Below, piece after piece: positions 6,361-54,808 of a DNA stretch of 64,000 nucleotides. Below the pieces are notes generated by a model, which searched no databases, was not told where the DNA came from, and saw only the letters and a program-made list of their open reading frames with translations. Source of the stretch: Pseudomonadota bacterium. Lineage in GTDB: Bacteria; Pseudomonadota; Alphaproteobacteria; Rhodobacterales; Rhodobacteraceae. Within the stretch, counting starts at the first letter, position 1. The number at the start of each line of letters is the position of its first letter. The translations under genes were made by a program, and so were the position numbers. The stretch spans positions 47-64,046 of the forward strand of contig JBCDCE010000012.1 of assembly GCA_039182515.1 (NCBI GenBank), in the 5' to 3' direction.

Positions 6361-6442
6361 AGTCTGTGTCTCCTCCCAAAGAACGCAAGCGCCCCAAACA
6401 TTTTGCCTGTTGACGGCTTCGTCAAAACCGAAGATACGGGTT

Positions 6443-6458
6443 TTGCAACCGGTTGCAA
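6443..6458. promoter_or_regulatory. Perfect 16-bp palindrome TTGCAACCGGTTGCAA, a LacI-family-type operator in the divergent iolD / oxidoreductase promoter region
   Basis: The core TGcAAcCGgTTgCA fits the generic LacI-family operator pattern TGnAAnCGnTTnCA. A second near-identical copy lies at 14836..14850. Confidence 0.7.
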
Positions 6459-6492
6459 GAATAAAGATGAACTGGGGCCTTGGGAGGAACAC

Positions 6493-7596
6493 ATGGCAAA
6501 GATCGGCATCGGCATTGTCGGCGGTGGCTACATGGGCAAAGCCCATTCCGTTGCCTTTGCGGCGGTGGGAAGCGTGTTTGAAACCTCGCTGCGCCCGCGC
6601 TTAGAGATGATCTGCGCCTCCTCGCCTGCATCCGCTGAGAGCTACCGCGCGAAGTTTGGCTTTGCGCGGGCCACGTCCGATTGGAAAGCGCTCGTGGAGG
6701 ACCCGAAGGTCGAGGCCGTGATCATTGCAACGCCCCAAAAGTTTCACCGCGAGATTGCCGTCGCAGCTTTTGCTTTGGCCAAGCCCGTTTTCTGTGAAAA
6801 GCCCCTTGGGGCCTCTCTTGAAGACAGCCGCGCGATGGTGAACGCCGCACAAGCCTCAGGTGCTGTGAACATGGTTGGCTTCAACTATGTGCGCACGCCC
6901 GCCACGCAGTTTGCGCGTCAGCTGATTGCAGAGGGTCGCTTAGGCCAGATCACCTATTTTCGCGGTGAGCATACGGAAGACTTTTTCGCTGATCCCGACG
7001 CCCCGGCTACCTGGCGCAGTTTTGGGCGGGCAAACGGCTGCATGGGGGATCTTGCGCCTCACCCCATCAATCTCGCACATGCTTTGATGGGGCCAATCGC
7101 TGAACTAAACGCCGTGATTGAAACCGTTTATCCCACGCGCGGCGGTGAGCCCGTTGACAACGACGATGCCGCCCAAATGATGCTGCGCTTTGAAAGCGGC
7201 GTGCAGGGCCATCTGATGGTCAGCCGAACCGCCACAGGGCGCAAAATGGGCTATGCCTATGAGGTGCATGGCTCCAAAGGCGCGCTCAGGTTTGACCAAG
7301 AAGATCAAAACGCCTTGCATCTCTATCTGCGTGAAGGGCCTGAGGCCGAGCAGGGCTTCCGCAAGATCCTCACAGGCCCCGCACATCCCGATTACGCCCC
7401 TTTCTGCCAAGGCCCCGGGCATGGCACGGGCTACCAAGATCAAATCATCATCGAAGCCCATGATTTCATCAAAGCCATCGAGGCCGGTCAAGCCCTGTGG
7501 CCCACGTTTGAAGAAGGCATGGCTGTGAACCAAGTTGTGGAAGCGGCATTTGCCAGCCACGACCAACGCGCCTGGGTGCGCGTCAAAGACTTCTAA
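6493..7596 (+). CDS. Gfo/Idh/MocA-family NAD(P)-dependent oxidoreductase, candidate inositol 2-dehydrogenase
   Basis: Trimmed to the ATG at 6493, preceded by GGGAGGAA. Has the N-terminal Rossmann motif MAKIGIGIVGGGYMGKAH and the EKP motif (FCEKPL). Confidence 0.8.
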   Translation: MAKIGIGIVGGGYMGKAHSVAFAAVGSVFETSLRPRLEMICASSPASAESYRAKFGFARATSDWKALVEDPKVEAVIIATPQKFHREIAVAAFALAKPVFCEKPLGASLEDSRAMVNAAQASGAVNMVGFNYVRTPATQFARQLIAEGRLGQITYFRGEHTEDFFADPDAPATWRSFGRANGCMGDLAPHPINLAHALMGPIAELNAVIETVYPTRGGEPVDNDDAAQMMLRFESGVQGHLMVSRTATGRKMGYAYEVHGSKGALRFDQEDQNALHLYLREGPEAEQGFRKILTGPAHPDYAPFCQGPGHGTGYQDQIIIEAHDFIKAIEAGQALWPTFEEGMAVNQVVEAAFASHDQRAWVRVKDF

Positions 7597-7612
7597 AGAA
7601 AGGCCCCAGCAC

Positions 7613-8509
7613 ATGATCCAGATCGGCAATGCCCCCTGCTCTTGGGGTGTAGAATTCGCAGATGACCCTCGCAATCCGGCGTGGCGCAAAGTTCTGCAAG
7701 AAAACGCAGATGCAGGCTATACCGGCATTGAGCTTGGCCCTGTGGGATTCATGCCTGAAGATCCAGCTGTCTTAGGCGACGCGCTTGAAGAGTTTGGCCA
7801 AACCCTGGTGGGCGGCGTCGTGTTCCGCCCGTTCCACGATCCAAACGCTTGGGACGACGTGATGGACGGCGCTATTCGCACGTGCAAAGCGCTCAAAGCC
7901 CACGGTGCCGAGCATCTTGTGTTGATCGATTCCATCTCTGAGCGCCGCGCGCCGACGGCGGGTCGTGCGGATGAAGCTGAGCAAATGGACAAGGCCGAAT
8001 GGACCGCCTTCCGAGATCGCATTGCCACGGTCGCGAAGATGGGGGCCGAAGACTATGGGCTCACGGTTGGCATTCACGCGCATGCTGCCGGGTTCATCGA
8101 CTTTGAGCCAGAGCTTGAACGGCTCTTGGGTGAGGTCGACGAAGCAATCCTGAAGATCTGCTTTGATACAGGCCACCATTCTTACGCGGGCTTTGATCCC
8201 GTGGCCTTCATGGAGCGGCACATCGCGCGCATCAGCTACATGCATTTCAAAGACATTGATCCAAAAGTGAAAGCCGACGTCATCGCCAAACGCACCGGCT
8301 TCTATGATGCCTGCGGCCAAGGAATTTTCTGCAATCTGGGCGATGGAGATGTGGACTTTGCCCGCGTTCGCCAGATCCTTTTGGATGCGGGCTTTGATGG
8401 CTGGTGCACAGTCGAGCAAGACTGCGATCCGGAAGGGGACACGTCCCCCATCGATGACGCCAAACTGAACCGTGCTTTCCTACAATCCATCGGCTTTGAA
8501 GGAGCTTAA
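7613..8509 (+). CDS. Xylose-isomerase-like TIM-barrel protein, IolE-like (candidate inosose dehydratase)
   Basis: Trimmed to the ATG at 7613 (MIQIGNAPCSWGVEF...). The C-terminal GDGDVDF..GFDGWCTVEQDCDP resembles the IolE-type end. Context is the iol cluster. Confidence 0.65.
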   Translation: MIQIGNAPCSWGVEFADDPRNPAWRKVLQENADAGYTGIELGPVGFMPEDPAVLGDALEEFGQTLVGGVVFRPFHDPNAWDDVMDGAIRTCKALKAHGAEHLVLIDSISERRAPTAGRADEAEQMDKAEWTAFRDRIATVAKMGAEDYGLTVGIHAHAAGFIDFEPELERLLGEVDEAILKICFDTGHHSYAGFDPVAFMERHIARISYMHFKDIDPKVKADVIAKRTGFYDACGQGIFCNLGDGDVDFARVRQILLDAGFDGWCTVEQDCDPEGDTSPIDDAKLNRAFLQSIGFEGA

Positions 8510-27498: not shown

Positions 27499-29777
27499 GT
27501 GTTGCTAAGCCCCTCCCGCATGATAGCGCGGCGCTGCATGTCACCGGAGCCGCCCGCTACGTGAGCGATATTCCCTTGCCGCAGGGCGCATTGCATCTTG
27601 CCTTTGGGTTAAGCGAGATTGCACATGGCAGACTTAACAGTATGGACCTTGAGGCTGTGCGCGCGAGCGACGGGGTCGTCGCGATCCTAACCGCAAGCGA
27701 TCTGCCCGCCGCGAATGACGTTTCCCCATCTGTGCATGACGAGCCACTTCTGGCGACGGATCATATTCACTACATGGGCCAGCCCCTCTTTATAGTAATA
27801 GCGACCTCACATCGTTGGGCGCGGATCGCGGCTCGAAAGGCAAGTGTTGATGTGAGCCCCTTGCCCGCCTGCCTCACAATCGACGAAGCTTTGGCGGCAG
27901 GGAACCGGTTTGAAGATGGGCCCCGCGTTTGGGAACGCGGAGACTATACACTGATCAATAAGGCACCCTTCCGGCTTTCCTCGCGCCTTGAGCTGGGGGG
28001 GCAGGAGCACTTTTATCTCGAAGGCCAAGCGGCCGCTGCTCTGCCGCAAGAGGCGGGCGATATGCTGATCCATGCCTCCTCACAACACCCGACCGAAATT
28101 CAACACAAGGTCGCTGAGGCCCTGGGCACACATATGCACAGCGTGCGCGTGGAAGTGCGCCGGATGGGCGGTGGGTTCGGTGGCAAAGAGAGCCAAGGTA
28201 ATGCGCTCGCTGTTGCCTGTGCGATCGCGGCTCAGGCCACAGGCAAGCCCTGTGCGATGCGCTACGACCGTGACGATGATATGGTCATCACAGGCAAACG
28301 CCATGAGACCCGCGTGGATTATGACGTGGGCTTTGATGCAACCGGCAAGATCCTAGCACTTGATGTGACCCATGCGATGCGGTGCGGTTGGGCTCAGGAT
28401 CTCAGCCTGCCCGTAGCAGACCGCGCAATGCTGCATGCTGACAACGCCTATTACCTGCCCAATGTGCGCATCACCTCGCACCGCTTGCGCACCAACACAC
28501 AAAGCGCCACCGCCTTTCGCGGCTTTGGTGGGCCGCAAGGGATGGCGGGGATGGAGCGGATCATCGATCATATCGCGCACCATCTAGATCTCGATCCATT
28601 GGCGGTGCGCAAAGCCAATCTCTACGATGGCAGCGGGCAAACCACGCCATATGGGCAAGTGGTTGAAGGATCTGTGCTGCCCAATCTGATCGATAGGCTT
28701 GCGCAGAGCGCCGACTATGCTGCGCGGCGGCAAGCTGTGGCGGATTGGAATGCATCTCACAAGGTGCTCAAAAAGGGGATCGCGCTGACGCCCGTTAAGT
28801 TCGGGATCTCATTTACGCTCAGCCACCTCAACCAAGCGGGCGCTTTGGTGCATGTTTATCAGGATGGCTCTGTGCATCTCAATCACGGCGGCACGGAAAT
28901 GGGCCAAGGGCTCTTTCAAAAGGTGGCGCAGGTCGCCGCAGATCGCTTTGGGGTCCCGCTGGATACGATCAAAATCACGGCCACAGACACCGGCAAAGTG
29001 CCCAACACGTCCGCCACAGCTGCGTCTTCCGGCTCGGACCTCAACGGGATGGCTGTCAAAGCCGCTTGTGACACAATCCGAGATCGCATCGCTGTTTGCT
29101 TGGCAGAAATGCACCAAGCCAAGCCGGATGATGTCGTTTTCAAAGACGGTCAGGTGCAGGTGGGCGACAACATTTTGACCTTCGCCCAAGCGGCTCAAAC
29201 GGCCTACGAGGCGCGCGTGAGCCTCTCCTCTACCGGGTTCTATAAAACACCCGACCTGAGTTGGGACCGGATCAAAGGGCAAGGCCGCCCGTTTTATTAC
29301 TTTGCTAACGGTGCCGCAGTAAGCGAAGTGGTGATCGACACGCTCACTGGAGAAAATCGGATCTTGCGCGTGGATATTTTGCATGATGCGGGCCGCTCGT
29401 TGAACCCCAGCTTAGACATCGGCCAAATTGAAGGCGGGTTCGTGCAGGGCGCTGGATGGCTCACGATGGAAGAGCTCGTTTGGGACGACACCGGCAAGCT
29501 GCGCACGCATGCGCCCTCCACCTACAAAATCCCTGCGATGCGAGATCGCCCGGATGTGTTCAACGTCGCCCTTTGGGACGGGGAGAACGCGGAAGACACG
29601 ATCTACCGCTCAAAAGCCGTAGGCGAGCCGCCCTTCATGCTGGGAATTTCCGTATTTCATGCGCTGTCCCATGCCGTTCAAGCCTGCGGGCCACACTATC
29701 CTGATCTCCAAGGGCCAGCCACGCCCGAAGAACTCAACCGCGCGGTGTCTCGCGCCACAAAAAGTGCAGACACATGA
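27495..29777 (+). CDS. xdhB: Xanthine dehydrogenase molybdopterin-binding subunit
   Basis: 760 aa with the GGGFGGKE motif. Its start overlaps the xdhA stop by 4 nt. Confidence 0.9.
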   Translation: MSVAKPLPHDSAALHVTGAARYVSDIPLPQGALHLAFGLSEIAHGRLNSMDLEAVRASDGVVAILTASDLPAANDVSPSVHDEPLLATDHIHYMGQPLFIVIATSHRWARIAARKASVDVSPLPACLTIDEALAAGNRFEDGPRVWERGDYTLINKAPFRLSSRLELGGQEHFYLEGQAAAALPQEAGDMLIHASSQHPTEIQHKVAEALGTHMHSVRVEVRRMGGGFGGKESQGNALAVACAIAAQATGKPCAMRYDRDDDMVITGKRHETRVDYDVGFDATGKILALDVTHAMRCGWAQDLSLPVADRAMLHADNAYYLPNVRITSHRLRTNTQSATAFRGFGGPQGMAGMERIIDHIAHHLDLDPLAVRKANLYDGSGQTTPYGQVVEGSVLPNLIDRLAQSADYAARRQAVADWNASHKVLKKGIALTPVKFGISFTLSHLNQAGALVHVYQDGSVHLNHGGTEMGQGLFQKVAQVAADRFGVPLDTIKITATDTGKVPNTSATAASSGSDLNGMAVKAACDTIRDRIAVCLAEMHQAKPDDVVFKDGQVQVGDNILTFAQAAQTAYEARVSLSSTGFYKTPDLSWDRIKGQGRPFYYFANGAAVSEVVIDTLTGENRILRVDILHDAGRSLNPSLDIGQIEGGFVQGAGWLTMEELVWDDTGKLRTHAPSTYKIPAMRDRPDVFNVALWDGENAEDTIYRSKAVGEPPFMLGISVFHALSHAVQACGPHYPDLQGPATPEELNRAVSRATKSADT

Positions 29778-30706
29778 GCTTTGACAGAGCAGATCTGCAG
29801 GCCAAAGTGGCCGCCCACGGGCAGGTTTGGCGGGTGGTTGTGGCCGCAACCAAGGGATCTGTGCCCCGGGAGGTTGGCGCGAGCATGCTTGTGTGGCGCA
29901 ACGGGCAATCTGGCACCATTGGCGGTGGTGCGCTCGAACTACAAGCTGCTCAAACGGCCCTCAATCTGACAAAAGACACTGTCACAACCCATCCGCTCGG
30001 CCCAGCGCTTGGGCAGTGTTGCGGAGGGGCGGTGACCCTGCTCACGGAAGCTTACGAACAATCCCGTGCAGAGAGTTTAGCCGAGGGTATTTTTGCACGT
30101 GGACCTGGACAAAAGCCGCTCTCAGTGACCCGACGCTTGCGCGAAATCCGCGACGGGCGGCGCAAAGCTGAGCCTGAGTATCTCGATGGTTGGATGATCG
30201 AGCCTGAGAGTTTGCCTGCCCGCGCGCTTTGGATCTGGGGAGCGGGCCATGTGGGCCGCGCTTTGGTGAACACCTTCGCACCTCTGAAGCGCTTTGAGAT
30301 CACATGGGCTGACACAAGCTTGTCTCGGTTTCCAGACTCTCTTCCTGCTGGCGTCACACCCACGGCGGCAAGGGATCTCACTCAGCTTATCGCCTATGCC
30401 CCGCCTCAAGCAGAGCATGTAATTTTGACCTATAGCCACGAGATCGACTTCGCGCTGTGTCACACCCTCCTAAATCATGGCTTTGGCTGGTGCGGACTCA
30501 TTGGATCCGCGACCAAATGGGCGCGGTTTAGAAGTCGTCTCAAAAAACTTGGTCACTCAGACGATCAAATTGCGCGCATCACTTGCCCCATTGGCGATCC
30601 AAGCCTCGGCAAAGAGCCGCAAGCAATTGCCCTTGGTCTGGCCTACGAACGGTTGCGTGCATCTGAGAGTGTCGCCACGCATCACCATAAGGAAATCACA
30701 GTATGA
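29774..30706 (+). CDS. xdhC: Xanthine dehydrogenase accessory protein
   Basis: 310 aa with XdhC/CoxI-like layout. Start/stop overlaps with the genes on both sides. Confidence 0.8.
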   Translation: MSFDRADLQAKVAAHGQVWRVVVAATKGSVPREVGASMLVWRNGQSGTIGGGALELQAAQTALNLTKDTVTTHPLGPALGQCCGGAVTLLTEAYEQSRAESLAEGIFARGPGQKPLSVTRRLREIRDGRRKAEPEYLDGWMIEPESLPARALWIWGAGHVGRALVNTFAPLKRFEITWADTSLSRFPDSLPAGVTPTAARDLTQLIAYAPPQAEHVILTYSHEIDFALCHTLLNHGFGWCGLIGSATKWARFRSRLKKLGHSDDQIARITCPIGDPSLGKEPQAIALGLAYERLRASESVATHHHKEITV

Positions 30707-32184
30707 GCGGACTTCTCACGCTTCAAAATGTCACCAAAGCCTACCCGGGCGTTGTGGCCAATGATGATGTGTTCATGGCGCTTAAATCCGGCGAGGTGCA
30801 TGCGCTCTTGGGTGAAAATGGAGCGGGTAAGTCCACGCTCGTGAAGATGATTTACGGGCTGGTTAAACCAGACAGCGGCACGATGCAGATGATGGGCGAG
30901 GCCTTCAGCCCCAAAACCCCCAATGAGGCCCGTGCGCGCGGTGTCGCGATGGTGTTTCAACACTTTTCGCTCTTTGGCGCTTTGTCGGTGGCGGAGAATA
31001 TCGCGCTTGGGATGAGCAATCCGCCAAAACTGCGGGACTTGTCGCGCAAGATCGAAGAGGTTTCTGAGGCTTACGGGCTTCCGCTGAAAGCCGGGCGTTT
31101 GGTCGATACCTTGAGCGCAGGCGAGCAACAGCGGGTCGAGATTGTGCGCTGCCTTTTGCAAGAGCCTAAGCTTTTGATCATGGACGAACCGACAAGCGTT
31201 TTGACCCCGCAGGAGGTCGATGTGCTCTTCGGAACCCTACGGCGCTTGCGCGATGAAGGAACGGCAATCTTGTACATTTCGCACAAGCTCGAAGAGATCC
31301 GAACCCTCTGCGACAGCGCAACCATTCTGCGCGGCGGCAAGGTTGTGGGCACCTGCGTTCCAGCTGAGACCTCGGCGCGCGACATGGCAGAAACAATGGT
31401 CGGTGAGCGGTTCGCCGTGCCTAAGCGCAAAACAGGTGACGTGGGCGATGTGCGGTTTGCAGCTCGAAACCTCGCGAGCGATGGTTTGCGCAACGTGAGC
31501 TTTGACGTGCTTGCAGGCGAAATTCTGGGCATCGGCGGTGTGGCTGGCAACGGACAAGACGCGCTCATGTCGGCTCTTTCAGGCGAAACGCTCAGCGCTG
31601 CGGATGCGCTCACCTTCGATGGCAAACCGATTGGCAATATGGGCGTGTCTGCGCGCCGTCTCTTGGGTGTTCTAACGGCTCCAGAAGAACGCTTGGGCCA
31701 TGCGGCTGTGCCAGATATGAGCCTTACGGAGAATGCAGCCCTATCCGGCCTTGAGCGCAAAGAGTTGGCCACAACTGGCTTTGTCAGCTGGGCCAAGGCA
31801 AAAGACTTCGCCGAAACCGTGATCCTGCGTTTTGATGTGCGCACACCGGGGGCAGGCACCGCTGCGCGCGCGCTTTCAGGCGGGAACTTGCAGAAATTCG
31901 TCATGGGCCGCGAGATCAGCCAGCAGCCTGAGGTCTTTGTGGTCAATCAACCCACATGGGGTGTGGATGCAGCCGCCGCCGCTGCGATCCGGCAAGAGTT
32001 ATTAGATCTCGCAGCGCAAGGCTGTGCTTTGGTTGTGGTGAGCCAAGATCTTGACGAGCTCATCGAAATTTCGGATCGCTTTGCGGCCCTCAATGAGGGC
32101 CGCTTGAGTGCTGCGCGGATGACCGCAGACCTGACTATGGAAGATATTGGCCTGATGCTGGGAGGCGCGGATGCTCACGCTTGA
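30703..32184 (+). CDS. ABC transporter ATP-binding protein (tandem NBDs), purine/nucleoside-type importer
   Basis: GENGAGKST, LSAGEQQR and LSGGNLQK motifs. 493 aa. Confidence 0.85.
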   Translation: MSGLLTLQNVTKAYPGVVANDDVFMALKSGEVHALLGENGAGKSTLVKMIYGLVKPDSGTMQMMGEAFSPKTPNEARARGVAMVFQHFSLFGALSVAENIALGMSNPPKLRDLSRKIEEVSEAYGLPLKAGRLVDTLSAGEQQRVEIVRCLLQEPKLLIMDEPTSVLTPQEVDVLFGTLRRLRDEGTAILYISHKLEEIRTLCDSATILRGGKVVGTCVPAETSARDMAETMVGERFAVPKRKTGDVGDVRFAARNLASDGLRNVSFDVLAGEILGIGGVAGNGQDALMSALSGETLSAADALTFDGKPIGNMGVSARRLLGVLTAPEERLGHAAVPDMSLTENAALSGLERKELATTGFVSWAKAKDFAETVILRFDVRTPGAGTAARALSGGNLQKFVMGREISQQPEVFVVNQPTWGVDAAAAAAIRQELLDLAAQGCALVVVSQDLDELIEISDRFAALNEGRLSAARMTADLTMEDIGLMLGGADAHA

Positions 32185-33259
32185 AAAACGCCCCATACCG
32201 TCAAAGCTTTGGTCTTATCTGACGCCACTCATCGCGCTTTTGCTCACTATGATTGCGGGCGGGATCATGTTTTGGCTGTTGGGCAAAGATCCTTTCGCGG
32301 CCCTGCGCACGATTTTCCTGGACCCGATCTTCAACGAGCAATTTGCAAGCTATGCGCGCCCACAACTTTTGATTAAAGCCGGGCCGTTGATCTTGATCGC
32401 GGTTGGCTTGGCCATCGGGTTTCGCGCGGGCGTTTGGAACATTGGGGCCGAAGGCCAATATATTATTGGCGCGATTTGTGGTGCAGCCGTGGGGCTTGCC
32501 TTCTACCCAACAGAAAGTTGGATCATTTTCCCGCTTATGGTGCTCGCGGGCATGGTGGGCGGTGTCGCTTGGGCGATGATCCCCGCTTTGTTGAAGGTGA
32601 AGTTCAACACCAATGAAATCCTCGTCTCGCTCATGCTCGTGTATGTGGCCCAAGAGGTTTTGTCGAAAATGGCCCTGGGGCCTTTGAAAAACCCCGATGG
32701 CGCGGGCTTTCCAGGCAGTCGCAATCTTCAACAATACCCGTCGGCTCATAACGCTGAGATCTGGGCTGGGACATCCATCCATTGGGGCATCATCATCGCG
32801 TTTTTTGCCGTTGTGGCAGGTTTTGTCTTGATGTCCCGACATAAGCTGGGCTTTGCGATCCGGCTGATGGGCGAAAGCCCAAGGGCTGCGCGGTTTGCAG
32901 GTGTCACCCCCTCTTGGATCGTCGTGATCTGTTTGGGGATTGCGGGCGGAGCCGCTGGGCTTGCGGGGCTCTTTGAGGTCTCGGGACCATCGGGCCAAAT
33001 CAGCATTGATTTTGCCTCGGGCTATGGCTTCACAGCGATCATCGTGGCCTTCTTGGGGCGCTTGCACCCCATTGGCATCTTGGCTGCCGGCTTACTTATG
33101 GGCGTAACATATATCGGCGGCGAGCTTGCTCAGTTTATGATCGGCCTGCCCTCTGCGGCGATCCAAGCCTTCCAAGGCATGCTTCTGTTCTTTCTGTTGG
33201 GCTCAGAGATCTTGATCAATTACCGCGTGCGCTGGAGCAGCGCCGCAAAGGAGGCGTGA
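32171..33259 (+). CDS. ABC transporter permease
   Basis: 362 aa, multi-TM, within the BMP-type transporter operon. Confidence 0.85.
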   Translation: MLTLEKRPIPSKLWSYLTPLIALLLTMIAGGIMFWLLGKDPFAALRTIFLDPIFNEQFASYARPQLLIKAGPLILIAVGLAIGFRAGVWNIGAEGQYIIGAICGAAVGLAFYPTESWIIFPLMVLAGMVGGVAWAMIPALLKVKFNTNEILVSLMLVYVAQEVLSKMALGPLKNPDGAGFPGSRNLQQYPSAHNAEIWAGTSIHWGIIIAFFAVVAGFVLMSRHKLGFAIRLMGESPRAARFAGVTPSWIVVICLGIAGGAAGLAGLFEVSGPSGQISIDFASGYGFTAIIVAFLGRLHPIGILAAGLLMGVTYIGGELAQFMIGLPSAAIQAFQGMLLFFLLGSEILINYRVRWSSAAKEA

Positions 33260-33262
33260 GCC

Positions 33263-34189
33263 ATGGGCAGCATTGATCCAACCCTCCTTATCGCTTCGCT
33301 CTTAGTCGCCTCAACCCCCATTCTGCTTGCAGCGCTTGGGGAATTGGTGACTGAGAAAGCGGGTGTTCTGAACCTTGGCGTGGAAGGCATGATGATCACA
33401 GGCGCGATCTGTGGCTTTGCTGTGGCCGTTGAGAGCGGCTCACCTTGGCTTGGCTTTGTTGCAGGAGCGGGCGGTGGCGCGCTTTTGTCCATGGTCTTTG
33501 CCATACTCACCCAGTTTTTCCTCTCCAACCAAGTGGCAACAGGCTTGGCGCTCACGCTGTTTGGTCTTGGGTTTTCTTCGATGATTGGTCAAGGCTATGT
33601 GGGGATCGTGCCGCCGGATGTGCCAGATGTGCCGTTTGGCGCGCTGGCTGAGATCCCGGTTTTGGGTCCAATTTTCTTTTCCCACGATGCGATGCTCTAC
33701 ATCGGATTGATGCTTGTCGTTTTGGTTTGGTGGGTGCTGCGTGCCACGCGGCTGGGGCTCGTGTTGCGCGCAGTGGGCGAAAACCATGATGCGGCTCATG
33801 CTTTGGGCTACCCCGTGCTTTTGGTGCGCTTCGGCGCGATTGCTTTTGGTGGCGCCTTGGCGGGGCTTGGCGGCGCTTACTTGAGCCTCGTGCGTGTGCC
33901 GCAATGGACCGAAGGCATGACGGCGGGTGCGGGATGGATCGCACTTGCAATTGTTGTTTTTGCCTCTTGGAGACCGATACGCGTGCTCTGGGGTGCCTAT
34001 CTTTTTGGCGGGATCACTGTTTTACAACTCAACCTCCAAGCGGCAGGCGTTGCAATTCCGGTGGAATACTTGTCCATGAGCCCGTATTTGATCACAATCT
34101 TTGTGCTCGTTTTAATGTCTGCCAGAAAAGCTGGTGGACGCTTAAATGCGCCCGAAAGTCTCGGACGCACCTTCCATGCTTCGCGCTAG
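33263..34189 (+). CDS. ABC transporter permease
   Basis: 308 aa, multi-TM, second permease of the operon. Confidence 0.85.
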   Translation: MGSIDPTLLIASLLVASTPILLAALGELVTEKAGVLNLGVEGMMITGAICGFAVAVESGSPWLGFVAGAGGGALLSMVFAILTQFFLSNQVATGLALTLFGLGFSSMIGQGYVGIVPPDVPDVPFGALAEIPVLGPIFFSHDAMLYIGLMLVVLVWWVLRATRLGLVLRAVGENHDAAHALGYPVLLVRFGAIAFGGALAGLGGAYLSLVRVPQWTEGMTAGAGWIALAIVVFASWRPIRVLWGAYLFGGITVLQLNLQAAGVAIPVEYLSMSPYLITIFVLVLMSARKAGGRLNAPESLGRTFHASR

Positions 34190-34213
34190 CGCGGAGTAAG
34201 ACAAACCAAGGGG

Positions 34214-35293
34214 ATGTATGAAATGACCTTTAAGACCTTGCTGACCGGCACCGTTATGGCGCTTGGCCTAGCGACAGCCGCTGTGGCTCAAGACAAAACC
34301 AAAGTTGGGTTCATCTATGTCGGCTCGATCGGCGATGGCGGCTGGAACTATGAGCATAACCAAGGCCGCTTGGCTGTCGAAGACGCTTTGGGCGATGCGG
34401 TTGAGACCACCTACATTGAGCGGGTACCAGAAGGGGCCGACGCTGAGCGCGTCATGACGCAAATGGCTCTGTCAGGCCATGATCTGATCTTCACGACATC
34501 TTTTGGCTACATGGATCCGACAATCAACGTTGCTGCGAAATTTCCAAACGTGAAATTCGAGCATGCAACCGGCTACAAACGGGCAGACAACGTCTCCACC
34601 TACTCTGCGCGCTTCTATGAAGGCCGGGCTGTGATCGGGCATGTTGCTGGCAAGATGACCAAAACCAACAAGGTCGGCTACATCGCCAGCTTCCCGATTC
34701 CTGAAGTGATCCGTGGCATCAACGCGGCCTATCTTCATGCGGCACGTGTGAACCCGGACGTCGAATTCAACGTGATCTGGGTCTACACCTGGGAAGATCC
34801 CGCGAAAGAGGCAGACGCTGCGAAAGCTCTGATTGACCAGGGTGCAGATGTGATCATGCAGCACACAGATACTACAGCGCCTATGCTTGTGGCTGAAGAA
34901 GCGGGCGTAATGGCGTTTGGTCAAGCTTCGGACATGTCTGCGTCAGGCCCAACTGCGCATTTGACGTCTATCATTGATGACTGGGCGCCCTACTATATCG
35001 CGCGCACAAAAGCGGTCATGGATGGCACTTGGACAAGCATCGACACTTGGGACGGTATCGAGCCTGGGATGGTTGCATTTGCTGAATTTTCCTCACAGAT
35101 CCCAGCAGATGTTGTGGCTGAGGCAAAGCAAATGATCGAAGACATTTCGAGCGGCGCTTACTACCCGTTTACCGGTCCTATCAACAAACAAGACGGTTCC
35201 GTGTGGCTAAAAGATGGCGAAATTGCGGACGATGGCACGCTTGCAACCATGGATTTCTACATTGAAGGCGTGACTGGCGATATTCCTAACTAA
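34214..35293 (+). CDS. BMP-family (basic membrane protein) ABC transporter substrate-binding protein
   Basis: Signal peptide ...LLTGTVMALGLATAAVAQ and BMP/PnrA-like layout (GFIYVGSIGDGGWN). Confidence 0.85.
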   Translation: MYEMTFKTLLTGTVMALGLATAAVAQDKTKVGFIYVGSIGDGGWNYEHNQGRLAVEDALGDAVETTYIERVPEGADAERVMTQMALSGHDLIFTTSFGYMDPTINVAAKFPNVKFEHATGYKRADNVSTYSARFYEGRAVIGHVAGKMTKTNKVGYIASFPIPEVIRGINAAYLHAARVNPDVEFNVIWVYTWEDPAKEADAAKALIDQGADVIMQHTDTTAPMLVAEEAGVMAFGQASDMSASGPTAHLTSIIDDWAPYYIARTKAVMDGTWTSIDTWDGIEPGMVAFAEFSSQIPADVVAEAKQMIEDISSGAYYPFTGPINKQDGSVWLKDGEIADDGTLATMDFYIEGVTGDIPN

Positions 35294-35336: not shown

Positions 35337-35368
35337 GGCCCGGGATTTCCCGGGCCTTTTGTCTTTTT
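35337..35368 (+). terminator. Rho-independent terminator after the BMP gene
   Basis: 8-bp GC stem GGCCCGGG / CCCGGGCC with a 4-nt loop, followed by TTTTGTCTTTTT. Confidence 0.75.
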
Positions 35369-35637
35369 GATCATCTTTTGATAAGTTTCGTCTCGAACGG
35401 TTAAGAATCACTCGATTTTTTTGCCAAAAAATATGGTGGCGTTAACCATCCCGTTAACAAATAGTTAGCGGGAAACCAAAAACTGTGGCCGAAATTTGAC
35501 CTAAATGTGGTGTTTCCGCTACACACAAACCACAACTACTAGTTGCATCGCCACATTCCGAACAAATTCTTTGACTCAAACCCGCGCCAGGGCAATCGCT
35601 GTAATGTCAATACACATCTTACTTTCGGAGCCTGACC

Positions 35638-36171
35638 ATGACTGCCATCACAAAACGCCTCGATGTCGCGAACAAAGCACCAGCTTTTAAGACTGACTTC
35701 GCTCACGTTTCACCTGCTGCGGGTGTTGAAGTAGCGAACAAAGCGCCATCGTTCCGGACAGACTTTGCAAACAAAGCACCTGCCTTCGCAAACGACGTTG
35801 AAATTGCAAACAAAGCACCGTCTTTCTCCGTAGACGTCGCCAACAAAGCACCAGCCTTCCGCGTCGATGTGGCGAATAAAGCGCCTGCGTTCGACGTAGA
35901 AGTTGCAAACAAAGCGCCAGCCTTCCGCGTCGATGTGGCAAACAAAGCACCTGCGTTCGACGTAGAAGTTGCAAACAAAGCACCAGCGTTCCGCGTCGAC
36001 GTGGCAAACAAAGCGCCTGCTTTCGACGTAGAAGTTGCAAACAAGGCACCAGCCTTCCGCGTCGATGTGGCAAATAAAGCGCCTGCTTTCGATGTCGAAA
36101 TCGCTAACAAAGCGCCATCCTTTCGTGTAGAAGTTGCAAATAAAGCGCCTGCTTTTGATATCGCAGCCTGA
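35638..36171 (+). CDS. Tandem-repeat protein of 177 aa with 14 copies of ANKAP[AS]F; candidate multi-core precursor peptide
   Basis: ATG preceded by GGAG 7 nt upstream. The protein reads MTAITKRLD-(VANKAPAFKTDF)-AHVSPAAGVE-(VANKAPSFRTDF)(ANKAPAFANDVE)(IANKAPSFSVD)-[VANKAPAFRVD VANKAPAFDVE]x4-(IANKAPSFRVE)(VANKAPAFDIAA). Copies differ at synonymous positions only in this frame. No signal peptide and no Cys. Confidence 0.7.
   Translation: MTAITKRLDVANKAPAFKTDFAHVSPAAGVEVANKAPSFRTDFANKAPAFANDVEIANKAPSFSVDVANKAPAFRVDVANKAPAFDVEVANKAPAFRVDVANKAPAFDVEVANKAPAFRVDVANKAPAFDVEVANKAPAFRVDVANKAPAFDVEIANKAPSFRVEVANKAPAFDIAA
35836..36099 (+). repeat. Four near-identical 66-bp (22-codon) tandem units inside the repeat gene
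   Basis: The unit GTCGCCAACAAAGCACCAGCCTTCCGCGTCGAT GTGGCGAATAAAGCGCCTGCGTTCGACGTAGAA is repeated 4 times. Third-position changes include GCA/GCG, CCA/CCT, GCC/GCG/GCT, AAC/AAT, AAA/AAG and GAT/GAC. Confidence 0.9.
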
Positions 36172-36188
36172 TAAGGACAAACTCCAAC

Positions 36189-36983
36189 GTGAAGGACGAT
36201 AAATCCCTTCAACCTGAGTTTAGCGTCCCAGATTCTGGGGCGCTTGCTCGTTTTTATCGCTGGGTTCCAAGTGCAAGCCAGCCCGTTCCCGCGGATGCCT
36301 CTGCAGGAGGTACACTTCCGATGCGTGCGTTTCGCTACTGCGAACCCATTCGGACAGCCTCACAGATGGGCTGGTATGTGTTCCCGCCAATGGATTTCTC
36401 GTTGATTTGGGACGGGACGCGCATCAATTGGACCTGCGAAGGAGCGCCGGGATGGATGGATCTCGACAGCGCGCAATTCCCTGAATTCCCAGAACATTTT
36501 AATGCTCATGCCCCAGAAGGCATAGAAGGGTACTCTCCGCCTTTCCTAGCCTCGACCCTTGCGCAAGGTGTCTTGCAGGTTTGGTCCGGCATCGTCGCTC
36601 GTACGGCACCTGGATGGTGTTTACTGGTGCGAAACCCTGCCAATATCCCGCGTGTCCACCACGCTGAAGGCTTCGAAGGAATCGTTGAAACCGACCGCTG
36701 GTTTGGCCCACTTTTTACCAATTTACGCCTCACAAAGACCGATACTCGGGTCGATTTCCGCCGTGATCATCCCCTATTCCAAATCCAACTGATCCATAGA
36801 TCTATGCTCGACAATAAGTTGTCGCAGCGGATGGAAAAGGTTGCTGGACTGGATGAAATGACGGTAGAAGACTGGGAAGATTATCGCGCCACGATTGTGG
36901 AGCGTGTTGGTGCCAAGCGAGTGCCCGGCGATTATGCTAAGACCTCGCGAAAAATGAGGAAACGGGATGACAGTCAGGCTTAG
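36189..36983 (+). CDS. Hypothetical protein with no family recognisable by eye; candidate partner or modifying enzyme of the repeat peptide
   Basis: 264 aa from the GTG at 36189, 17 nt after the repeat-gene stop. An alternative ATG at 36321 (MRAFRYCEPIRTASQMGWYVFPP) is preceded by a strong AGGAGG. No TM segment or signal peptide. The basic C-terminal tail is KTSRKMRKRDDSQA. Confidence 0.65.
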   Translation: MKDDKSLQPEFSVPDSGALARFYRWVPSASQPVPADASAGGTLPMRAFRYCEPIRTASQMGWYVFPPMDFSLIWDGTRINWTCEGAPGWMDLDSAQFPEFPEHFNAHAPEGIEGYSPPFLASTLAQGVLQVWSGIVARTAPGWCLLVRNPANIPRVHHAEGFEGIVETDRWFGPLFTNLRLTKTDTRVDFRRDHPLFQIQLIHRSMLDNKLSQRMEKVAGLDEMTVEDWEDYRATIVERVGAKRVPGDYAKTSRKMRKRDDSQA

Positions 36984-38133
36984 AGGACTGCCAGCTTTTG
37001 GCATGGTGCTCGTAAGTACGGCTTACGTTGTCGAGATATCGACATTTCCTCTTATTCTTCCCGCACTCGCAGAGTCGCTCAACATACTCGTGCAGTCCTC
37101 CCAGGCGCGCATGCTTGTCGCCTTTTATAAAATTGCGCTTGTTATCTCGCTTTTGTTTGGTGGATGGCTTGGTGATCGGCTCGGAAAAGAAGTTATTTTT
37201 ACCGTTGGAACGGCCATTTTCTGCCTCGCAAGCTTTGCACTTTTGCTGAGCCCAAATGCGGAAGCAGCATTGATTGCGCGCGCTCTACAAGGTTTTGGTG
37301 CCGGGCTGTTTTCGCCTATGGTGCCAGCGCTTTTGAGTGCACATAGTCCACAAAACCCAGTGCGTGCCCTTGCGAGATGGGGGCTGGTTACCGGCATCGC
37401 CGCAGCGACTTACCCAATCTTTGCGGAACAGTTAATTCGACTGTTTGGCTGGTCTGGTGGATGGGTCGTAATTCCCTTGGTCGCAGGCCTCTCCCTGTTT
37501 GGCCTTCCCCGCACAAAAGATGTTAAAGACCCACCAGAGCCGGCTAAAATACACACGTCGTTACGCGATATCAGCATCCCCGTATGGGCCATATTGGCTT
37601 ATGTTTTTCTTAATTACGGGATCACCACCTGGTTCATTTACGCCATGGCGATCAACATGCCAGCGGGCACAGGCATGTATAATATTGGTCTCTTGATGGC
37701 TGTGCTCTGGGGCACCTTTAGCATCAGCAACATCGCAGTTGAGAAGCTGTGGAACGGTTGGGCTTCTGGCGCCCGGCTTTTGGTTGCCGGAGCACTTTTG
37801 AACACGACGGGTGTTTGGATCTTTGGTGCTTTTGGCGTCCAGCCCATTTGCTGTGTTTTGGCCGCTTTGTTGATTGGCATGGGGATGGCGTTGAACAACG
37901 TACCGACCACTGAAATGGCTTTCGAGCTGTCCGACCGCACCATGCATGGCCGCGTCGCCTCGCTAGATATCGTGGCCGCGCGCTTGGGTGGCGCTGTGTT
38001 TGTGGTCTGGATCCCAATTGTTGGCTGGGAAGGCGTCATTGCAAACACATGGGCAGCGTTGATCTCTTTGATGATGGTGGCCTACGCCGCGAGCCAACAT
38101 GCTACCTACCATCAGGCTTCCCAACGCGCTTAA
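36967..38133 (+). CDS. MFS transporter (12-TM, exporter-like)
   Basis: 388 aa with MFS motif A GGWLGDRLGKE. Its ATG overlaps the upstream gene by 17 nt. Confidence 0.85.
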   Translation: MTVRLRGLPAFGMVLVSTAYVVEISTFPLILPALAESLNILVQSSQARMLVAFYKIALVISLLFGGWLGDRLGKEVIFTVGTAIFCLASFALLLSPNAEAALIARALQGFGAGLFSPMVPALLSAHSPQNPVRALARWGLVTGIAAATYPIFAEQLIRLFGWSGGWVVIPLVAGLSLFGLPRTKDVKDPPEPAKIHTSLRDISIPVWAILAYVFLNYGITTWFIYAMAINMPAGTGMYNIGLLMAVLWGTFSISNIAVEKLWNGWASGARLLVAGALLNTTGVWIFGAFGVQPICCVLAALLIGMGMALNNVPTTEMAFELSDRTMHGRVASLDIVAARLGGAVFVVWIPIVGWEGVIANTWAALISLMMVAYAASQHATYHQASQRA

Positions 38134-38153
38134 GCTGTGGCAGGCCTCAGGGC

Positions 38154-39086
38154 ATGACAGCACTTAGAACACTTTCGGGATCAACGCCCAAACCCTATAT
38201 CTTCGGCACCATGCAATGGGGCGACAGAGCCGATGAAGCCGCGTCGCGCGCCATGTTTGAAGCATGCCAGGCAGCAGGCATCTGCCATTTTGATACGGCC
38301 CATGTTTATACAAACGGCAACTCCGAAACCCTGCTTGGCAAATTCGCGTCTTCTGAACGCGAGGCTCTCTATGTCGCCACGAAGGTTGCCTACACGGGGG
38401 GATCAGGGCGCGCAAATATCACGCGGTGCTTCGACACAAGCCGCCAGCGGCTCAATATGGATGTGGTTGATCTGCTCTATTTGCATCGGTTCGACGATCA
38501 AACCCCACTTGCCGAGACCTTTGAGACCTTGGCTGATTTACAATCCAAGGGGCTGATCCGGCACATCGGCGTCTCAAACTTTGCCGCCTGGCAGGTCGTG
38601 AAGGCCCAGGGTGTTGCCGCAAGCTTCGGAACCCGTATTGATGTCATCCAACCGATGTACAGCCTTGTGAAGCGCCAAGCAGAAGTGGAAATTCTGCCCA
38701 TGGCGCATGACCTTGGGCTCGTCGCAGCAACCTATTCACCTTTGGGTGGAGGCTTGCTCACTGGCAAATACGTAAAAGGAGCCACAGGCCGCCTGACAGA
38801 AGACACACGCTATGCCGCGCGCTACGGGCAAACCTGGATGCACAGCACAGCGGAAACCCTTGCAGATTTGGCGCACACCGAAGGCGTCTCTCCTGCCACC
38901 CTAGCGGTGGCCTGGGTCGCGAAACATAAGTTGGCTCCACAGCCAATCCTCTCAGCACGCTCAGTAGATCAGCTTCAGGCTTCGCTGGAGGCCGTTCCAT
39001 TTGAGATGTCTGATTCCCTATACGCGCAGATCACCTCGCTTTCGATTGCGCCAGCTCCTGCCACAGACCGGCTCGAAGAGGCATGA
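38154..39086 (+). CDS. Aldo/keto reductase
   Basis: Trimmed to the ATG at 38154 (MTALRTLSGSTPKPYIFGTMQWG...DTAHVYTNGNSE). Starts 20 nt after the MFS stop. Confidence 0.85.
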   Translation: MTALRTLSGSTPKPYIFGTMQWGDRADEAASRAMFEACQAAGICHFDTAHVYTNGNSETLLGKFASSEREALYVATKVAYTGGSGRANITRCFDTSRQRLNMDVVDLLYLHRFDDQTPLAETFETLADLQSKGLIRHIGVSNFAAWQVVKAQGVAASFGTRIDVIQPMYSLVKRQAEVEILPMAHDLGLVAATYSPLGGGLLTGKYVKGATGRLTEDTRYAARYGQTWMHSTAETLADLAHTEGVSPATLAVAWVAKHKLAPQPILSARSVDQLQASLEAVPFEMSDSLYAQITSLSIAPAPATDRLEEA

Positions 39087-40162
39087 CACCGCGCGTCGCA
39101 ATCATCGGCGGCGGCATTGCCGGTGTCTCAGCCGCCGCTAAACTCGCCTCCCTGGCCCATGTCACGCTCTATGAGGCCGAGCCAACGCTCAGCTACCATG
39201 CAACAGGCCGGTCTGCGGCGATGTTTTTGGTGGGTTACGGCAATGAGGTTGTTCGCGCGCTCAACCAAGCCAGCGAAGCTGAATTGATCGCGCGTGAGGT
39301 TCTTTCCCCCAAAGGTGTGTTGATGTTGGAGCGCGCAACCGACCATGCTCAGTTTTTGGCAGAAAGCGGCGCTATGGGTCTGCCAGAGATTTCAATTTCC
39401 GAAGCCCAAAGCCTCCTTCCAATCTTAAACGTGGAGAGTGTTGCAAACGCCGCCTACAGCGCCGACGCCACAGCCATTGATACCGACGCTCTTGTGCAAT
39501 CCTATCTGCGCCAAGCACGCAACTTGGGTGCTGTGATCAAGCCTTCGAGCCCGGTTAAGACCCTGACCAAAACGGCAGCCGGATGGGACGTGGTCACCAA
39601 AGAGAGCCGAGATCCGTTCGATTACGTGGTCAACGCGGCCGGCGCTTGGGCGGACCAGATCGCAGAACGCGCGGGCCTAACACCGCTTGGTATAACACCT
39701 TACAGGCGCTCCATGGCTCAACTGCCCTTACCGGAAGGCGCAGAAAACCCAGCGGCTTGGCCCTTCACAATCGCTGCTGGAGAGCGTTGGTACGCGAAAA
39801 TCGTCGCTGGCAAATGGTGGGTCTCGCCTTCCGAAGAAGACCCAAGCGCACCGGTAGACGCCTTTGCCGATGATATGGTCATCGCAGAAGGCCTCGCGCG
39901 CTACGAAGACATGACAACCCAGCCCGTGACACGCGTGGAGCGGGTCTGGGCGGGCTTACGCAGTTTTGCACCCGACCGCGCGTTGGTTTTGGGACCAGAC
40001 CCAAAAGAGCCGAGCTTTCTATGGTGCGCGGGCCAAGGTGGATATGGTTTCCAAACCGCGCCTGCCGCCTCAGATTTTCTGGCGGCCCAGATCTCAAAAT
40101 CTCCCTCACCACTGCCAACTGAAACTATACGCGCACTGAGCCCTAGTCGCTTCACATCGTAG
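39083..40162 (+). CDS. FAD-dependent oxidoreductase (DAO family)
   Basis: MTPRVAIIGGGIAGVSAAAKL dinucleotide-binding motif. ATGA overlap with the AKR stop. Confidence 0.85.
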   Translation: MTPRVAIIGGGIAGVSAAAKLASLAHVTLYEAEPTLSYHATGRSAAMFLVGYGNEVVRALNQASEAELIAREVLSPKGVLMLERATDHAQFLAESGAMGLPEISISEAQSLLPILNVESVANAAYSADATAIDTDALVQSYLRQARNLGAVIKPSSPVKTLTKTAAGWDVVTKESRDPFDYVVNAAGAWADQIAERAGLTPLGITPYRRSMAQLPLPEGAENPAAWPFTIAAGERWYAKIVAGKWWVSPSEEDPSAPVDAFADDMVIAEGLARYEDMTTQPVTRVERVWAGLRSFAPDRALVLGPDPKEPSFLWCAGQGGYGFQTAPAASDFLAAQISKSPSPLPTETIRALSPSRFTS

Positions 40163-54340: not shown

Positions 54341-54808
54341 TCACTGACCTGTCGAGCCAAAACCACCCGCCCCGCGTGTGGTCTCGTTTAAAGCCTCATG
54401 CACTTCGAACTTAGCTTGCACGACAGGTGCAAGCACCATCTGCGCAATCCGCATGCCATGGGTCACCACAAACGGCTCTTGGCTTAAATTCATCACGAGG
54501 ACCCCCACCTCGCCGCGGTAGTCTGCGTCGATCGTGCCAGGAGAATTAGGTAGGGTAATACCGTTTTTCAGAGCCAAGCCCGAGCGTGGACGTATCTGAA
54601 CTTCAAAGCCGTGGGGGATCTCAAACCGCAAGCCCGTGGGTACAAGAGCGCGAGCGCCAGGGGCGAGGGTCACACCACTTTCTCGTTCGGCTTGCTGGAA
54701 ATTTGCTTTCAAATCGGCACCAGCGGCTTGCTCTGTTTCATAATGCGGCAGACCAAGCGTTTGGTCTGCACTTTCTACCCATTGTACCTTCAGCGATGTC
54801 ACGCTCAT
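54341..54808 (-). CDS. dut: dUTP diphosphatase
   Basis: 155 aa with ..AAGADL.., ..RSGLALK.., ..[10 protein letters not shown].. motifs. Confidence 0.9.

Follow-up and report, generated by a model that had tools for sequence, protein, structure and literature searches.

A DUF6065-family protein of predicted dUTPase-like fold as the candidate partner enzyme of tandem-repeat peptides in Alphaproteobacteria

We describe a small gene module in a 64,000-nucleotide stretch of DNA (the window, by which we mean the whole stretch analyzed: positions 47 to 64,046 of contig JBCDCE010000012.1, assembly GCA_039182515.1) from a bacterium of the Rhodobacteraceae. At its center is a gene at 36189..36983 (+ strand, stop included) encoding a 264-amino-acid (aa) protein of the DUF6065 family (domain of unknown function; Pfam PF19541), which stands between a gene for a peptide built of tandem repeats and a gene for an exporter of the major facilitator superfamily (MFS). 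Genes for such peptides accompany DUF6065 genes in most of the loci that we compared. We consider it probable that the three genes form a module of the type that makes peptides synthesized on the ribosome and modified after translation (RiPPs)—precursor, tailoring enzyme and exporter—and, with a shade more assurance, that the DUF6065 protein acts directly on the repeat peptide.

The first-pass annotation of the window, made from the letters alone, had taken the position of the gene to mean that its product was the best candidate for the enzyme acting on the repeat units, and had set co-occurrence with repeat-peptide genes in other genomes beforehand as the point on which this proposal could fall. 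A scan of GTDB with one genome per species gave at least 558 confirmed DUF6065 relatives; the best 80 of these were fetched and, with the window, make up the 81 loci compared here. Nearly all of the 80 come from Alphaproteobacteria (Rhodobacterales, Hyphomicrobiales, Acetobacteraceae, other Rhodospirillales, Sneathiella, and Reyranellaceae). The loci were scanned with the unit pattern [VILM]-x-[LIVMF]-[GA]-[GANDSQ]-x-[SAGR]-P-x-[LFIVM], the reverse complement of the upstream stretch and an equal-sized downstream stretch serving as controls. The outcome was clearly favorable to the proposal: a repeat-peptide gene with two or more units lies directly upstream, on the same strand, in 68 of the 81 loci, and 581 units were counted there as against 2 in the upstream reverse complement and 4 downstream. 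The loci that are negative by the pattern mostly carry variants of the unit (“VRLGAIARTL” three times in L078, “VQVGGIIKKLP” in L034, “VRLGASNRPLP” in L067), and in L026 (Muricoccus radiodurans) there is a single-core open reading frame (ORF) of 45 aa, “...ADAGRVHLGGFQKSY*”.

Enzyme and peptide diversify together, the identity clusters of the enzyme reproducing the peptide classes (ANK[SA]P[AL]F, GG[ML]SPLF, GNMSPAF, GGMAPSL, G[GA]FAPTL, GACAPVL, and GGMSP[SA]L). A more specific idea, a charge-swap contact between Arg55 of the enzyme (four residues past Cys51, discussed below) and position 2 of the peptide unit, failed an independent test; it had come from two clades in which Arg55 accompanies a non-Arg residue at that position.

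The peptide gene of the window (35638..36171, + strand) encodes a precursor-like product of 177 aa without a long leader, only 9 residues standing ahead of the first unit. In it [VIF]ANKAP[AS]F occurs 14 times, the period being mostly 11 aa, and its end is ...APAFDIAA; the last 10 units keep an exact 11-aa period and read V-[DE]-V-A-N-K-A-P-A-F-[RD]. The general unit has ten residues, V-x-[LIV]-[GA]-x-x-[SA]-P-x-[LF], of which V-[DE]-V-A-N-K-A-P-A-F is the form found in the window. Compared pairwise, the window units show 321 synonymous as against 68 nonsynonymous codon differences, so selection acts on the peptide sequence and not on the DNA repeat.

Across the repeat genes the copy number runs from 1 to 24 (median 6) and the period from 9 to 25 aa (17 or 18 being commonest), and the window array, with its 11-aa period and a single spacer residue between units, is the most compact regular one seen. 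Conservation within the unit falls on Val1, an aliphatic residue at 3, Gly or Ala at 4, Pro8 (not absolute) and Leu or Phe at 10; all units of one precursor share position 6, which differs between lineages (Met, Phe, Lys, Cys, Leu, Tyr), and at position 7 Ser alternates with Ala. Examples of the unit are DAGKVRLGGMSPSL, VRLGAFAPTL, VRLGACAPVL, VEMGGMSPLF, RIGNMSPAF, and VHIANKSPAF. Of 68 precursors, 23 end precisely at position 10 and a further 8 extend one residue beyond it, which fixes the Leu/Phe at position 10 as the C-terminal edge of the functional unit. A homology search with the repeat peptide gave one weak match, its low complexity defeating the word index. In L015, L018, L044, L048, L052, and L070 the array shifts to another frame partway along (“...GGMAPSLKPA” giving way to “GDGRRQGAAGRHGAEPEAG”, for example); such switches are probably assembly or indel errors in the long, high-GC tandem repeats of metagenome-assembled genomes, so the true copy numbers may lie above those counted.

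The third gene of the module (36967..38133, + strand) encodes an efflux-type MFS transporter of 388 aa, which matches PF07690 (MFS_1) at residues 18-345 (E 1.1e-29) and whose best NCBIfam similarities are drug-efflux subfamilies, all under their cut-offs. The DUF6065 gene begins 17 nucleotides (nt) past the stop of the repeat-peptide gene, and the MFS start overlaps the DUF6065 stop by 17 nt. With a terminator-like hairpin upstream, and with only this 17-nt gap or overlap leaving no space for a terminator between the genes, 35638-38133 most likely forms one compact three-gene operon. An ortholog of the MFS gene directly follows the DUF6065 gene in all loci of the ANK class (those with ANK[SA]P[AL]F units, namely the window and nine others), which come from Rhodobacterales, Mesorhizobium/Aminobacter, and Rhizobium, and the trio of peptide, DUF6065, and MFS genes is present in three alphaproteobacterial families. 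Two related strains, Rhizobium sp. SRDI969 and WSM4643, carry the enzyme gene on plasmids; the trio thus travels across families as a unit. The earlier designation of the protein as the partner enzyme of the repeat peptide, which had been argued from position, is thus supported by the pairing in 68 of 81 loci, by the match of enzyme clades to peptide classes, and by the occurrence of the trio in three families.

An EamA-type exporter follows the DUF6065 gene in L026 and L092. Since the pumps coupled to the enzyme gene, MFS and EamA alike, are small-molecule pumps, we put at roughly even the chance that the end product is small and exported, the precursor being cut to unit-sized pieces or less. 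Beyond the enzyme, the peptide gene alone is universal, and other gene content varies by lineage.

The 264-aa ORF is a genuine conserved gene, as follows from a Pfam score well above the cut-off and from the number of its homologs. A Pfam search, which the first-pass annotation had suggested, returned a single family, DUF6065 (70.4 bits against a gathering threshold of 26.6, E 2.1e-19, residues 49-244), with no other Pfam match at E<=1, and nothing was found for the protein in NCBIfam and PADLOC searches. A homolog search over 5.8 billion proteins gave 2,133 matches, most of them 250-280 aa long; PF19541 is present in all 120 listed homologs, the best of which reach identities of 90, 75 (Nereida sp. 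MMG025), and 71% (Pseudaestuariivita rosea), and the closest named relatives carry the NCBI label “DUF6065 family protein.” An exhaustive profile search of 50%-identity representatives returned 1,283 clusters at E<=1e-3. The earlier picture of a soluble protein poor in motifs was borne out: the ORF and its segments RAFRYCEPIRTASQMGWYVFPP, LLVRNPANIPRVHHAEGFEGIVETDRWFGP, and DFRRDHPLFQIQL are all there, as is the basic tail KTSRKMRKRDDSQA; regular expressions for the P-loop, Rossmann GxGxxG, CxxxCxxC, CxxC, HExxH, and GxSxG found none of these; the sole HxD/E is an HAE at 158; and hydropathy is low (maximum Kyte-Doolittle over 19 residues 1.35, grand average −0.46), with an isoelectric point of 6.1. 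Our literature searches found no mention of DUF6065, PF19541, or six of the unit sequences, and nothing relevant on a dUTPase-like fold together with a precursor peptide or gene cluster, or on tandem-repeat RiPPs.

Two starts had been offered for the gene, the GTG at 36189 (which AAGGA precedes by 12 nt) and the ATG at 36321 (Met45); both codons exist, and the second is unlikely to be used, the residues ahead of it being conserved. In the alignment of 40 close homologs no variation is seen at F22, P32, D36, A39, or P44, and conservation at R24, P27, and G41 is at least 90%. The structure model also has a confident strand at residues 20-24, so the true start is GTG 36189 or a codon very near it. 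A start at 36321 would cut off the conserved residues 20-44, and the AGGAGG ahead of it (36304-36309) consists of codons of a conserved Ala-Gly-Gly.

Structure prediction gave a fold where the motif searches had not. Following the suggestion of a model and a Foldseek search, AlphaFold2 (AF2) was run with the 40-sequence alignment and returned a model with a predicted local distance difference test (pLDDT) of 87.3 and a predicted template modeling score (pTM) of 0.77. All of the top 50 Foldseek matches in the PDB were trimeric dUTPases (E 2.4e-5 to 7e-4, probability 1.00), the best being 3ecy_A (E 2.4e-5, target-normalized template modeling score 0.75); across these matches the score was 0.56-0.75 when normalized to the target and about 0.35 when normalized to the query, the query being twice as long. 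In BFVD dUTPases appeared again, after phage proteins. The core of the DUF6065 protein is thus modeled as a dUTPase-like beta-barrel, into which some 85 residues (roughly 50-135) are inserted and which continues at the C-terminus in a helical extension ending in the conserved basic tail. Set beside the trimeric dUTPase/dCTP deaminase superfamily (PF00692, PF22769), the predicted barrel superposes and an acidic pair lies at the site of the catalytic Asp, whereas the protein is about twice as long, differs by the insert and the helical C-terminus, and has an invariant Cys that dUTPases lack.

The model also disposes of an earlier guess that the protein could be a cupin or double-stranded beta-helix oxygenase. 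Such an assignment finds no conserved His, no Pfam match to cupin or 2-oxoglutarate oxygenase families, and no cupin among the top 50 Foldseek PDB matches; histidines 103, 107, 157, 158, 194, and 203 are unconserved both in the 40 close homologs and in a distant set of 93 representatives (27-45% identical to the window protein), and the HAE at 158 varies among homologs. The result thereby corrects a plausible but wrong label, “cupin-like oxygenase.” Nor is the DUF6065 protein the housekeeping dUTPase, or needed for dUTP hydrolysis, because the window also carries a canonical dUTP diphosphatase gene (dut, 54341-54808, − strand; 155 aa, PF00692), whose product is 46% identical to E. coli Dut and has its closest named relatives in Roseovarius, Shimia, Litoreibacter, and Profundibacter (68-73% identity), by which the window is assigned to a bacterium of the Roseobacter group.

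Conservation in the distant set picks out a small group of best-kept polar residues. Cys51, in the motif RAFRYCEP (codon at 36339..36341, + strand), is invariant in all 40 close homologs and kept in 91 of the 93 distant representatives; Asn152 is found in 92 of them, Gln130 and Tyr249 in 88 each, Arg148 in 79, and Arg254 in 78. The motif EGIVETDRWFGP (residues 163-174; 36675..36710, + strand) holds an acidic cluster, with Glu163 present as Glu or Asp in 88, Glu167 likewise in 85, and Asp169 as Asp or Glu in 82. In the AF2 model Cys51 comes directly ahead of a helix (52-59), which is a classic placing for a reactive thiol and makes it a candidate nucleophile.

From these elements a working scheme can be proposed. 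The 177-aa product would be a substrate and not a folded protein, and the DUF6065 protein, in the cytoplasm, would recognize each unit directly, without need of a leader, and carry out the committed step of maturation. The enzyme would be a dUTPase-like barrel stripped of its phosphate-binding motifs and without conserved metal-binding histidines; the unit would be read as a recognition tag, and the enzyme would act, independently of cofactors, on the peptide backbone, a reaction that we favor because the conserved side chains of the unit are chemically inert. Given the invariant Cys, the acidic cluster, the Asn/Gln pair, and the absence of a cofactor motif, cleavage through a thioester seems the most economical choice, in which Cys51 would form the thioester, an acidic residue would serve as base, and Asn and Gln would provide the oxyanion hole. 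Endoproteolytic excision, possibly with transpeptidation or cyclization, would yield short Pro-containing peptides, and a small product (one unit or part of one) would leave by the MFS pump, many copies arising from each precursor. That the chemistry is in fact Cys-dependent cleavage or transpeptidation is a speculative part of the scheme, and we hold it rather unlikely to be right in that precise form.

Several points weigh against this picture. All statements on activity are drawn from gene context; we know of no protease or transpeptidase with a dUTPase-like fold; and no His accompanies the Cys, so that the proposed catalytic set would be an unusual one. A dedicated exporter is missing from most loci, a recognizable peptide gene is missing in L051 and L056 and survives as a decayed remnant in L062 and L063, and the charge-swap prediction is broken by P0077 (Arg55 together with “GKVRLGMASPSL”) and by L081. 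Barrels derived from dUTPases can also serve as non-catalytic binders, and the proteins of 17, 24, and 32 kDa among the BFVD hits are presumably of this adenovirus E4-ORF1 type. Finally, the AF2 model of the repeat protein shows a regular pattern of beta-strands, with a pTM of 0.63.

The alternative that survives best, though we hold it unlikely, is that the DUF6065 protein keeps the nucleotide pocket of its structural relatives and either uses a nucleotide to modify the peptide, by nucleotidylylation or phosphoryl transfer, or hydrolyzes a nucleotide-linked intermediate. Its natural starting point is the fold comparison itself, in which the top PDB matches are all dUTPases and BFVD repeats the result. 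At the level of sequence the protein has neither a PF00692 nor a PF22769 match in Pfam and no match in the PDB (phmmer/hmmsearch, with the single sequence and two profiles), and hhalign gave a probability of 0.3% against E. coli Dut and of 2.4% (P 0.02, not significant) against an alignment of 122 Dut sequences. Sequence-level homology to dUTPases was therefore set aside, Pfam, PDB searches, and hhalign all being non-significant, and the statement about the fold alone stands.

The non-significant hhalign alignment is collinear with dUTPase motifs II, III, and IV, pairing LLVRNPAN with QIRPRSGL (motif II), EGIVETDRWFGP with motif III (G-x-I-D-x-D-Y-x-G, which holds the catalytic Asp), and PLFQIQ with RIAQMV (motif IV). 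It speaks for a nucleotide pocket in so far as Glu or Asp stands at the position of the catalytic Asp and the Gln of motif IV is kept; this motif III-like E-x-D and motif IV-like Gln are the only dUTPase remnants. The phosphate-holding parts are missing or unconserved: the Arg/Ser of motif II is not kept (position 138 varies among R, Q, K, and T, or P-A-N stands there instead), and the glycine-rich arm of motif V is absent, the C-terminus being helical and basic. The conserved residues of the peptide, moreover, include no obvious nucleophile, as Ser7 alternates with Ala.

More distant members of the family add some weight to the nucleotide alternative and show at the same time how far it reaches. 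The members of the window subfamily are 45-90% identical and tied to repeat peptides. Outside it, among members at 27-30% identity, P0265 (L087 and L088) follows a 58-aa peptide ending in “...DKRYVSVGGGGGIADKVK” (also given as “...YVSVGGGGGIADKVK”), which keeps a V-x-V-G-G signature behind a 40-residue leader, and is itself followed by five further enzyme genes, a divergent MFS gene, and NTP_transf_5. Behind P0248 (L086) come a weak NTP_transf_5-like protein, an MFS pump, and an M28 peptidase, and beside it lies a divergent 68-aa peptide with a PP-loop ATPase; and P0232, a fusion of an HD-like DUF6817 domain with DUF6065, comes after a B12-radical-SAM gene and a 56-aa ORF. These distant DUF6065 members thus sit in RiPP-like clusters. 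The fusion of a distant DUF6065 to an HD-like domain, and the nucleotidyltransferase-like neighbors (NTP_transf_5 in L087, weak matches in L086 and L087), are what one would expect of a nucleotide-using enzyme, whereas the window subfamily has no nucleotidyltransferase partner. The MFS pumps of these distant clusters were considered as specific relatives of the window pump, and the comparison says that they are not.

Still more distant members (about 26-30% identity) lie on conjugative elements near type IV secretion system genes and have no obvious peptide, and for this reason the link to peptides is strongest for the window subfamily; in L089 TrbI is upstream of the DUF6065 gene, and in L090 (Sinorhizobium medicae plasmid pMl1, 6890-7597) the gene overlaps a non-repetitive hypothetical gene of 169 aa. 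The fold extends to viruses as well. The top structural matches in BFVD are uncharacterized proteins of uncultured Caudovirales (A0A6J5MPI8, A0A6J7WVY4, and A0A6J5NHY4; 200-290 aa, E down to 7e-10), and PHROGs has one weak sequence match (E 3.8e-5) to a family whose function is not annotated, phrog_7084, from both of which it follows that DUF6065-like proteins occur in some phages; a tblastn search of 50,697 phage genomes gave no match.

A little less probable again is that the protein binds the units without catalyzing anything, as a chaperone, a scaffold, or an immunity or sequestration factor, and that general proteases such as TldD/TldE process the peptide. Viruses have turned the dUTPase fold to protein binding, the minimal conserved module consists of two genes, and the acidic spacers could be bound by the basic tail at the C-terminus. 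In 32 of the 81 loci (L014, L030, L062, L063, and 28 others), moreover, a gene of the TldD/PmbA metallopeptidase family stands directly ahead of the peptide gene, about 1.1-2.6 kb upstream of DUF6065, with a PAS_7 histidine kinase and CtaA before it. In E. coli microcin B17 is matured by TldD/E, so a functional link is conceivable here, and the arrangement may equally be synteny within one large clade: the adjacency is confined to that clade and is absent from the window and from the other clades. For an enzyme it speaks that the Cys, Asn, Gln, and acidic cluster stay nearly invariant down to about 27% identity, as is typical of an active site.

Least credible, and in our view very improbable, is that the product of the repeat gene folds into a beta-rich structural solenoid or sheet, with DUF6065 as an unrelated or merely co-regulated neighbor: the single-sequence AF2 model places a strand on F-x-V-x-V every 11 residues (pLDDT 63.7, with 70-78 in the regular half; pTM 0.63), and the alternating RVD and DVE spacers could by their sequence form salt bridges, but AF2 over-predicts solenoids for perfect repeats, copy number (1-24) and period (9-25 aa) vary widely with Pro/Thr/Asp-rich spacers, one to three copies cannot form a solenoid, the N-terminal sequence has no signal peptide, the fused exporters are small-molecule pumps (MFS, EamA), and chance cannot account for so consistent a pairing with DUF6065.

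Returning to maturation of a peptide by the DUF6065 protein, the window resembles known RiPP systems in several respects and departs from all of them. A short ribosomal precursor gene adjoins, and is co-inherited with, a candidate tailoring enzyme, as in RiPP loci generally; a leader in the usual sense is absent, with 9 residues before the first unit, whereas single-core relatives of the window precursor have N-terminal regions of 30-40 aa. The DUF6065 protein has no Pfam match to a PqqD-type RiPP recognition element either, so recognition, if there is any, must be of the unit itself. The multi-core RiPPs (cyanobactins, orbitides, fungal dikaritins, and plant lyciumins) likewise have tandem short units with conserved flanks and a center that varies by lineage, free copy number, and a dedicated enzyme alongside; they differ from the window in that the latter has no leader and its units are almost contiguous, and we take DUF6065 to be unrelated to their enzymes (subtilisin-like PatA/PatG, prolyl oligopeptidases, DUF3328/UstYa, and BURP cyclases).

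Another parallel, in layout, is offered by microcin C (mccABC) and pantocin A (paaPABC), tiny operons that encode a precursor together with an MFS efflux protein and one or two enzymes, and by analogy with these the window operon would imply a small exported product. MccB and PaaA are E1-like adenylating enzymes working on single-copy precursors, whereas the window has a protein of predicted dUTPase fold and a precursor of 14 copies. The module belongs to none of the RiPP systems compared here, and a dUTPase-type fold is, to our knowledge, unprecedented for peptide maturation.

The surroundings of the operon were also compared. Upstream, an intrinsic-terminator-like hairpin of 8 G-C pairs followed by a T run (35337..35356, + strand), just after a Bmp lipoprotein gene, bounds a separate transcription unit on its 5′ side. 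In an alignment of upstream regions a perfect palindrome, CAACTAC-TAGTTG (35533..35545), lies about 95 nt before the ATG of the peptide gene; the corresponding place of L005 and L006 (Nereida sp. MMG025 and Pseudaestuariivita rosea) again has CAAC-N5-GTTG, with a conserved CTTTGAC downstream of it, and the two may be an operator and a −35 element of the operon. An Rfam search gave no match within the operon. Ahead of the insertion point of the operon lie an XdhC gene and a nucleoside-type ATP-binding cassette transporter (29774-35293, + strand), the latter comprising two ATPase domains, two BPD_transp_2 permeases, and the Bmp lipoprotein; Nereida, Pseudaestuariivita, and Algirhabdus show synteny across this block, with Bmp 76-77% identical, and a functional link to the operon is unsupported.

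Closely packed downstream of the MFS gene come an aldo/keto reductase gene (38049-39086, + strand), whose true start is probably near 38154 because the listed ORF overlaps the MFS gene by 85 nt, and a gene for a flavin-dependent oxidoreductase of the DAO family (39083..40162, + strand), an optional neighbor of uncertain membership in the module. Among ANK-class loci the DAO gene follows the MFS gene only in the window, L005, and L008, and the reductase is unique to the window; either may encode a tailoring enzyme that the module can do without, or be a neighbor of no relation to it. Elsewhere, a convergent gene for an activator with BTAD and tetratricopeptide (TPR) domains, resembling the Streptomyces antibiotic regulatory proteins, lies just downstream of DUF6065 (5808-8012, − strand, in L048, with relatives in 12-27 loci); it is seen in many Acetobacteraceae/Rhodospirillales loci and also beside P0120, and this type of regulator is typical of secondary-metabolite clusters. 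A non-GDSL lipase-like gene is a neighbor in 18 loci.

Somewhat short of an even chance, we suggest that DUF6065 is the founding enzyme of an undescribed and widespread class of ribosomal peptides, leaderless, matured on a dUTPase-type barrel, and exported as short peptides. If so, it would be the first peptide-maturing enzyme built on such a barrel, acting on precursors of up to 24 or more tandem units; the class would be found mainly in Alphaproteobacteria, in at least 558 species genomes; and ribosomal peptides would gain both a new enzyme fold and a new precursor family, as would a DUF with thousands of members gain a function. With only two or three genes the system would be among the simplest of its kind to reconstitute, and a leader-independent enzyme reading a repeated ten-residue tag could serve as a tool for peptide processing. 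The hosts belong to groups of ecological importance in which peptide signals and antibiotics are poorly known, namely Roseobacter-type bacteria of the sea, rhizobia associated with plants (some strains having the module on plasmids), and Acetobacteraceae of the soil, and in the marine Roseobacter group, the rhizobia, and the acetic-acid bacteria the exported peptide could be a diffusible signal or an antimicrobial.

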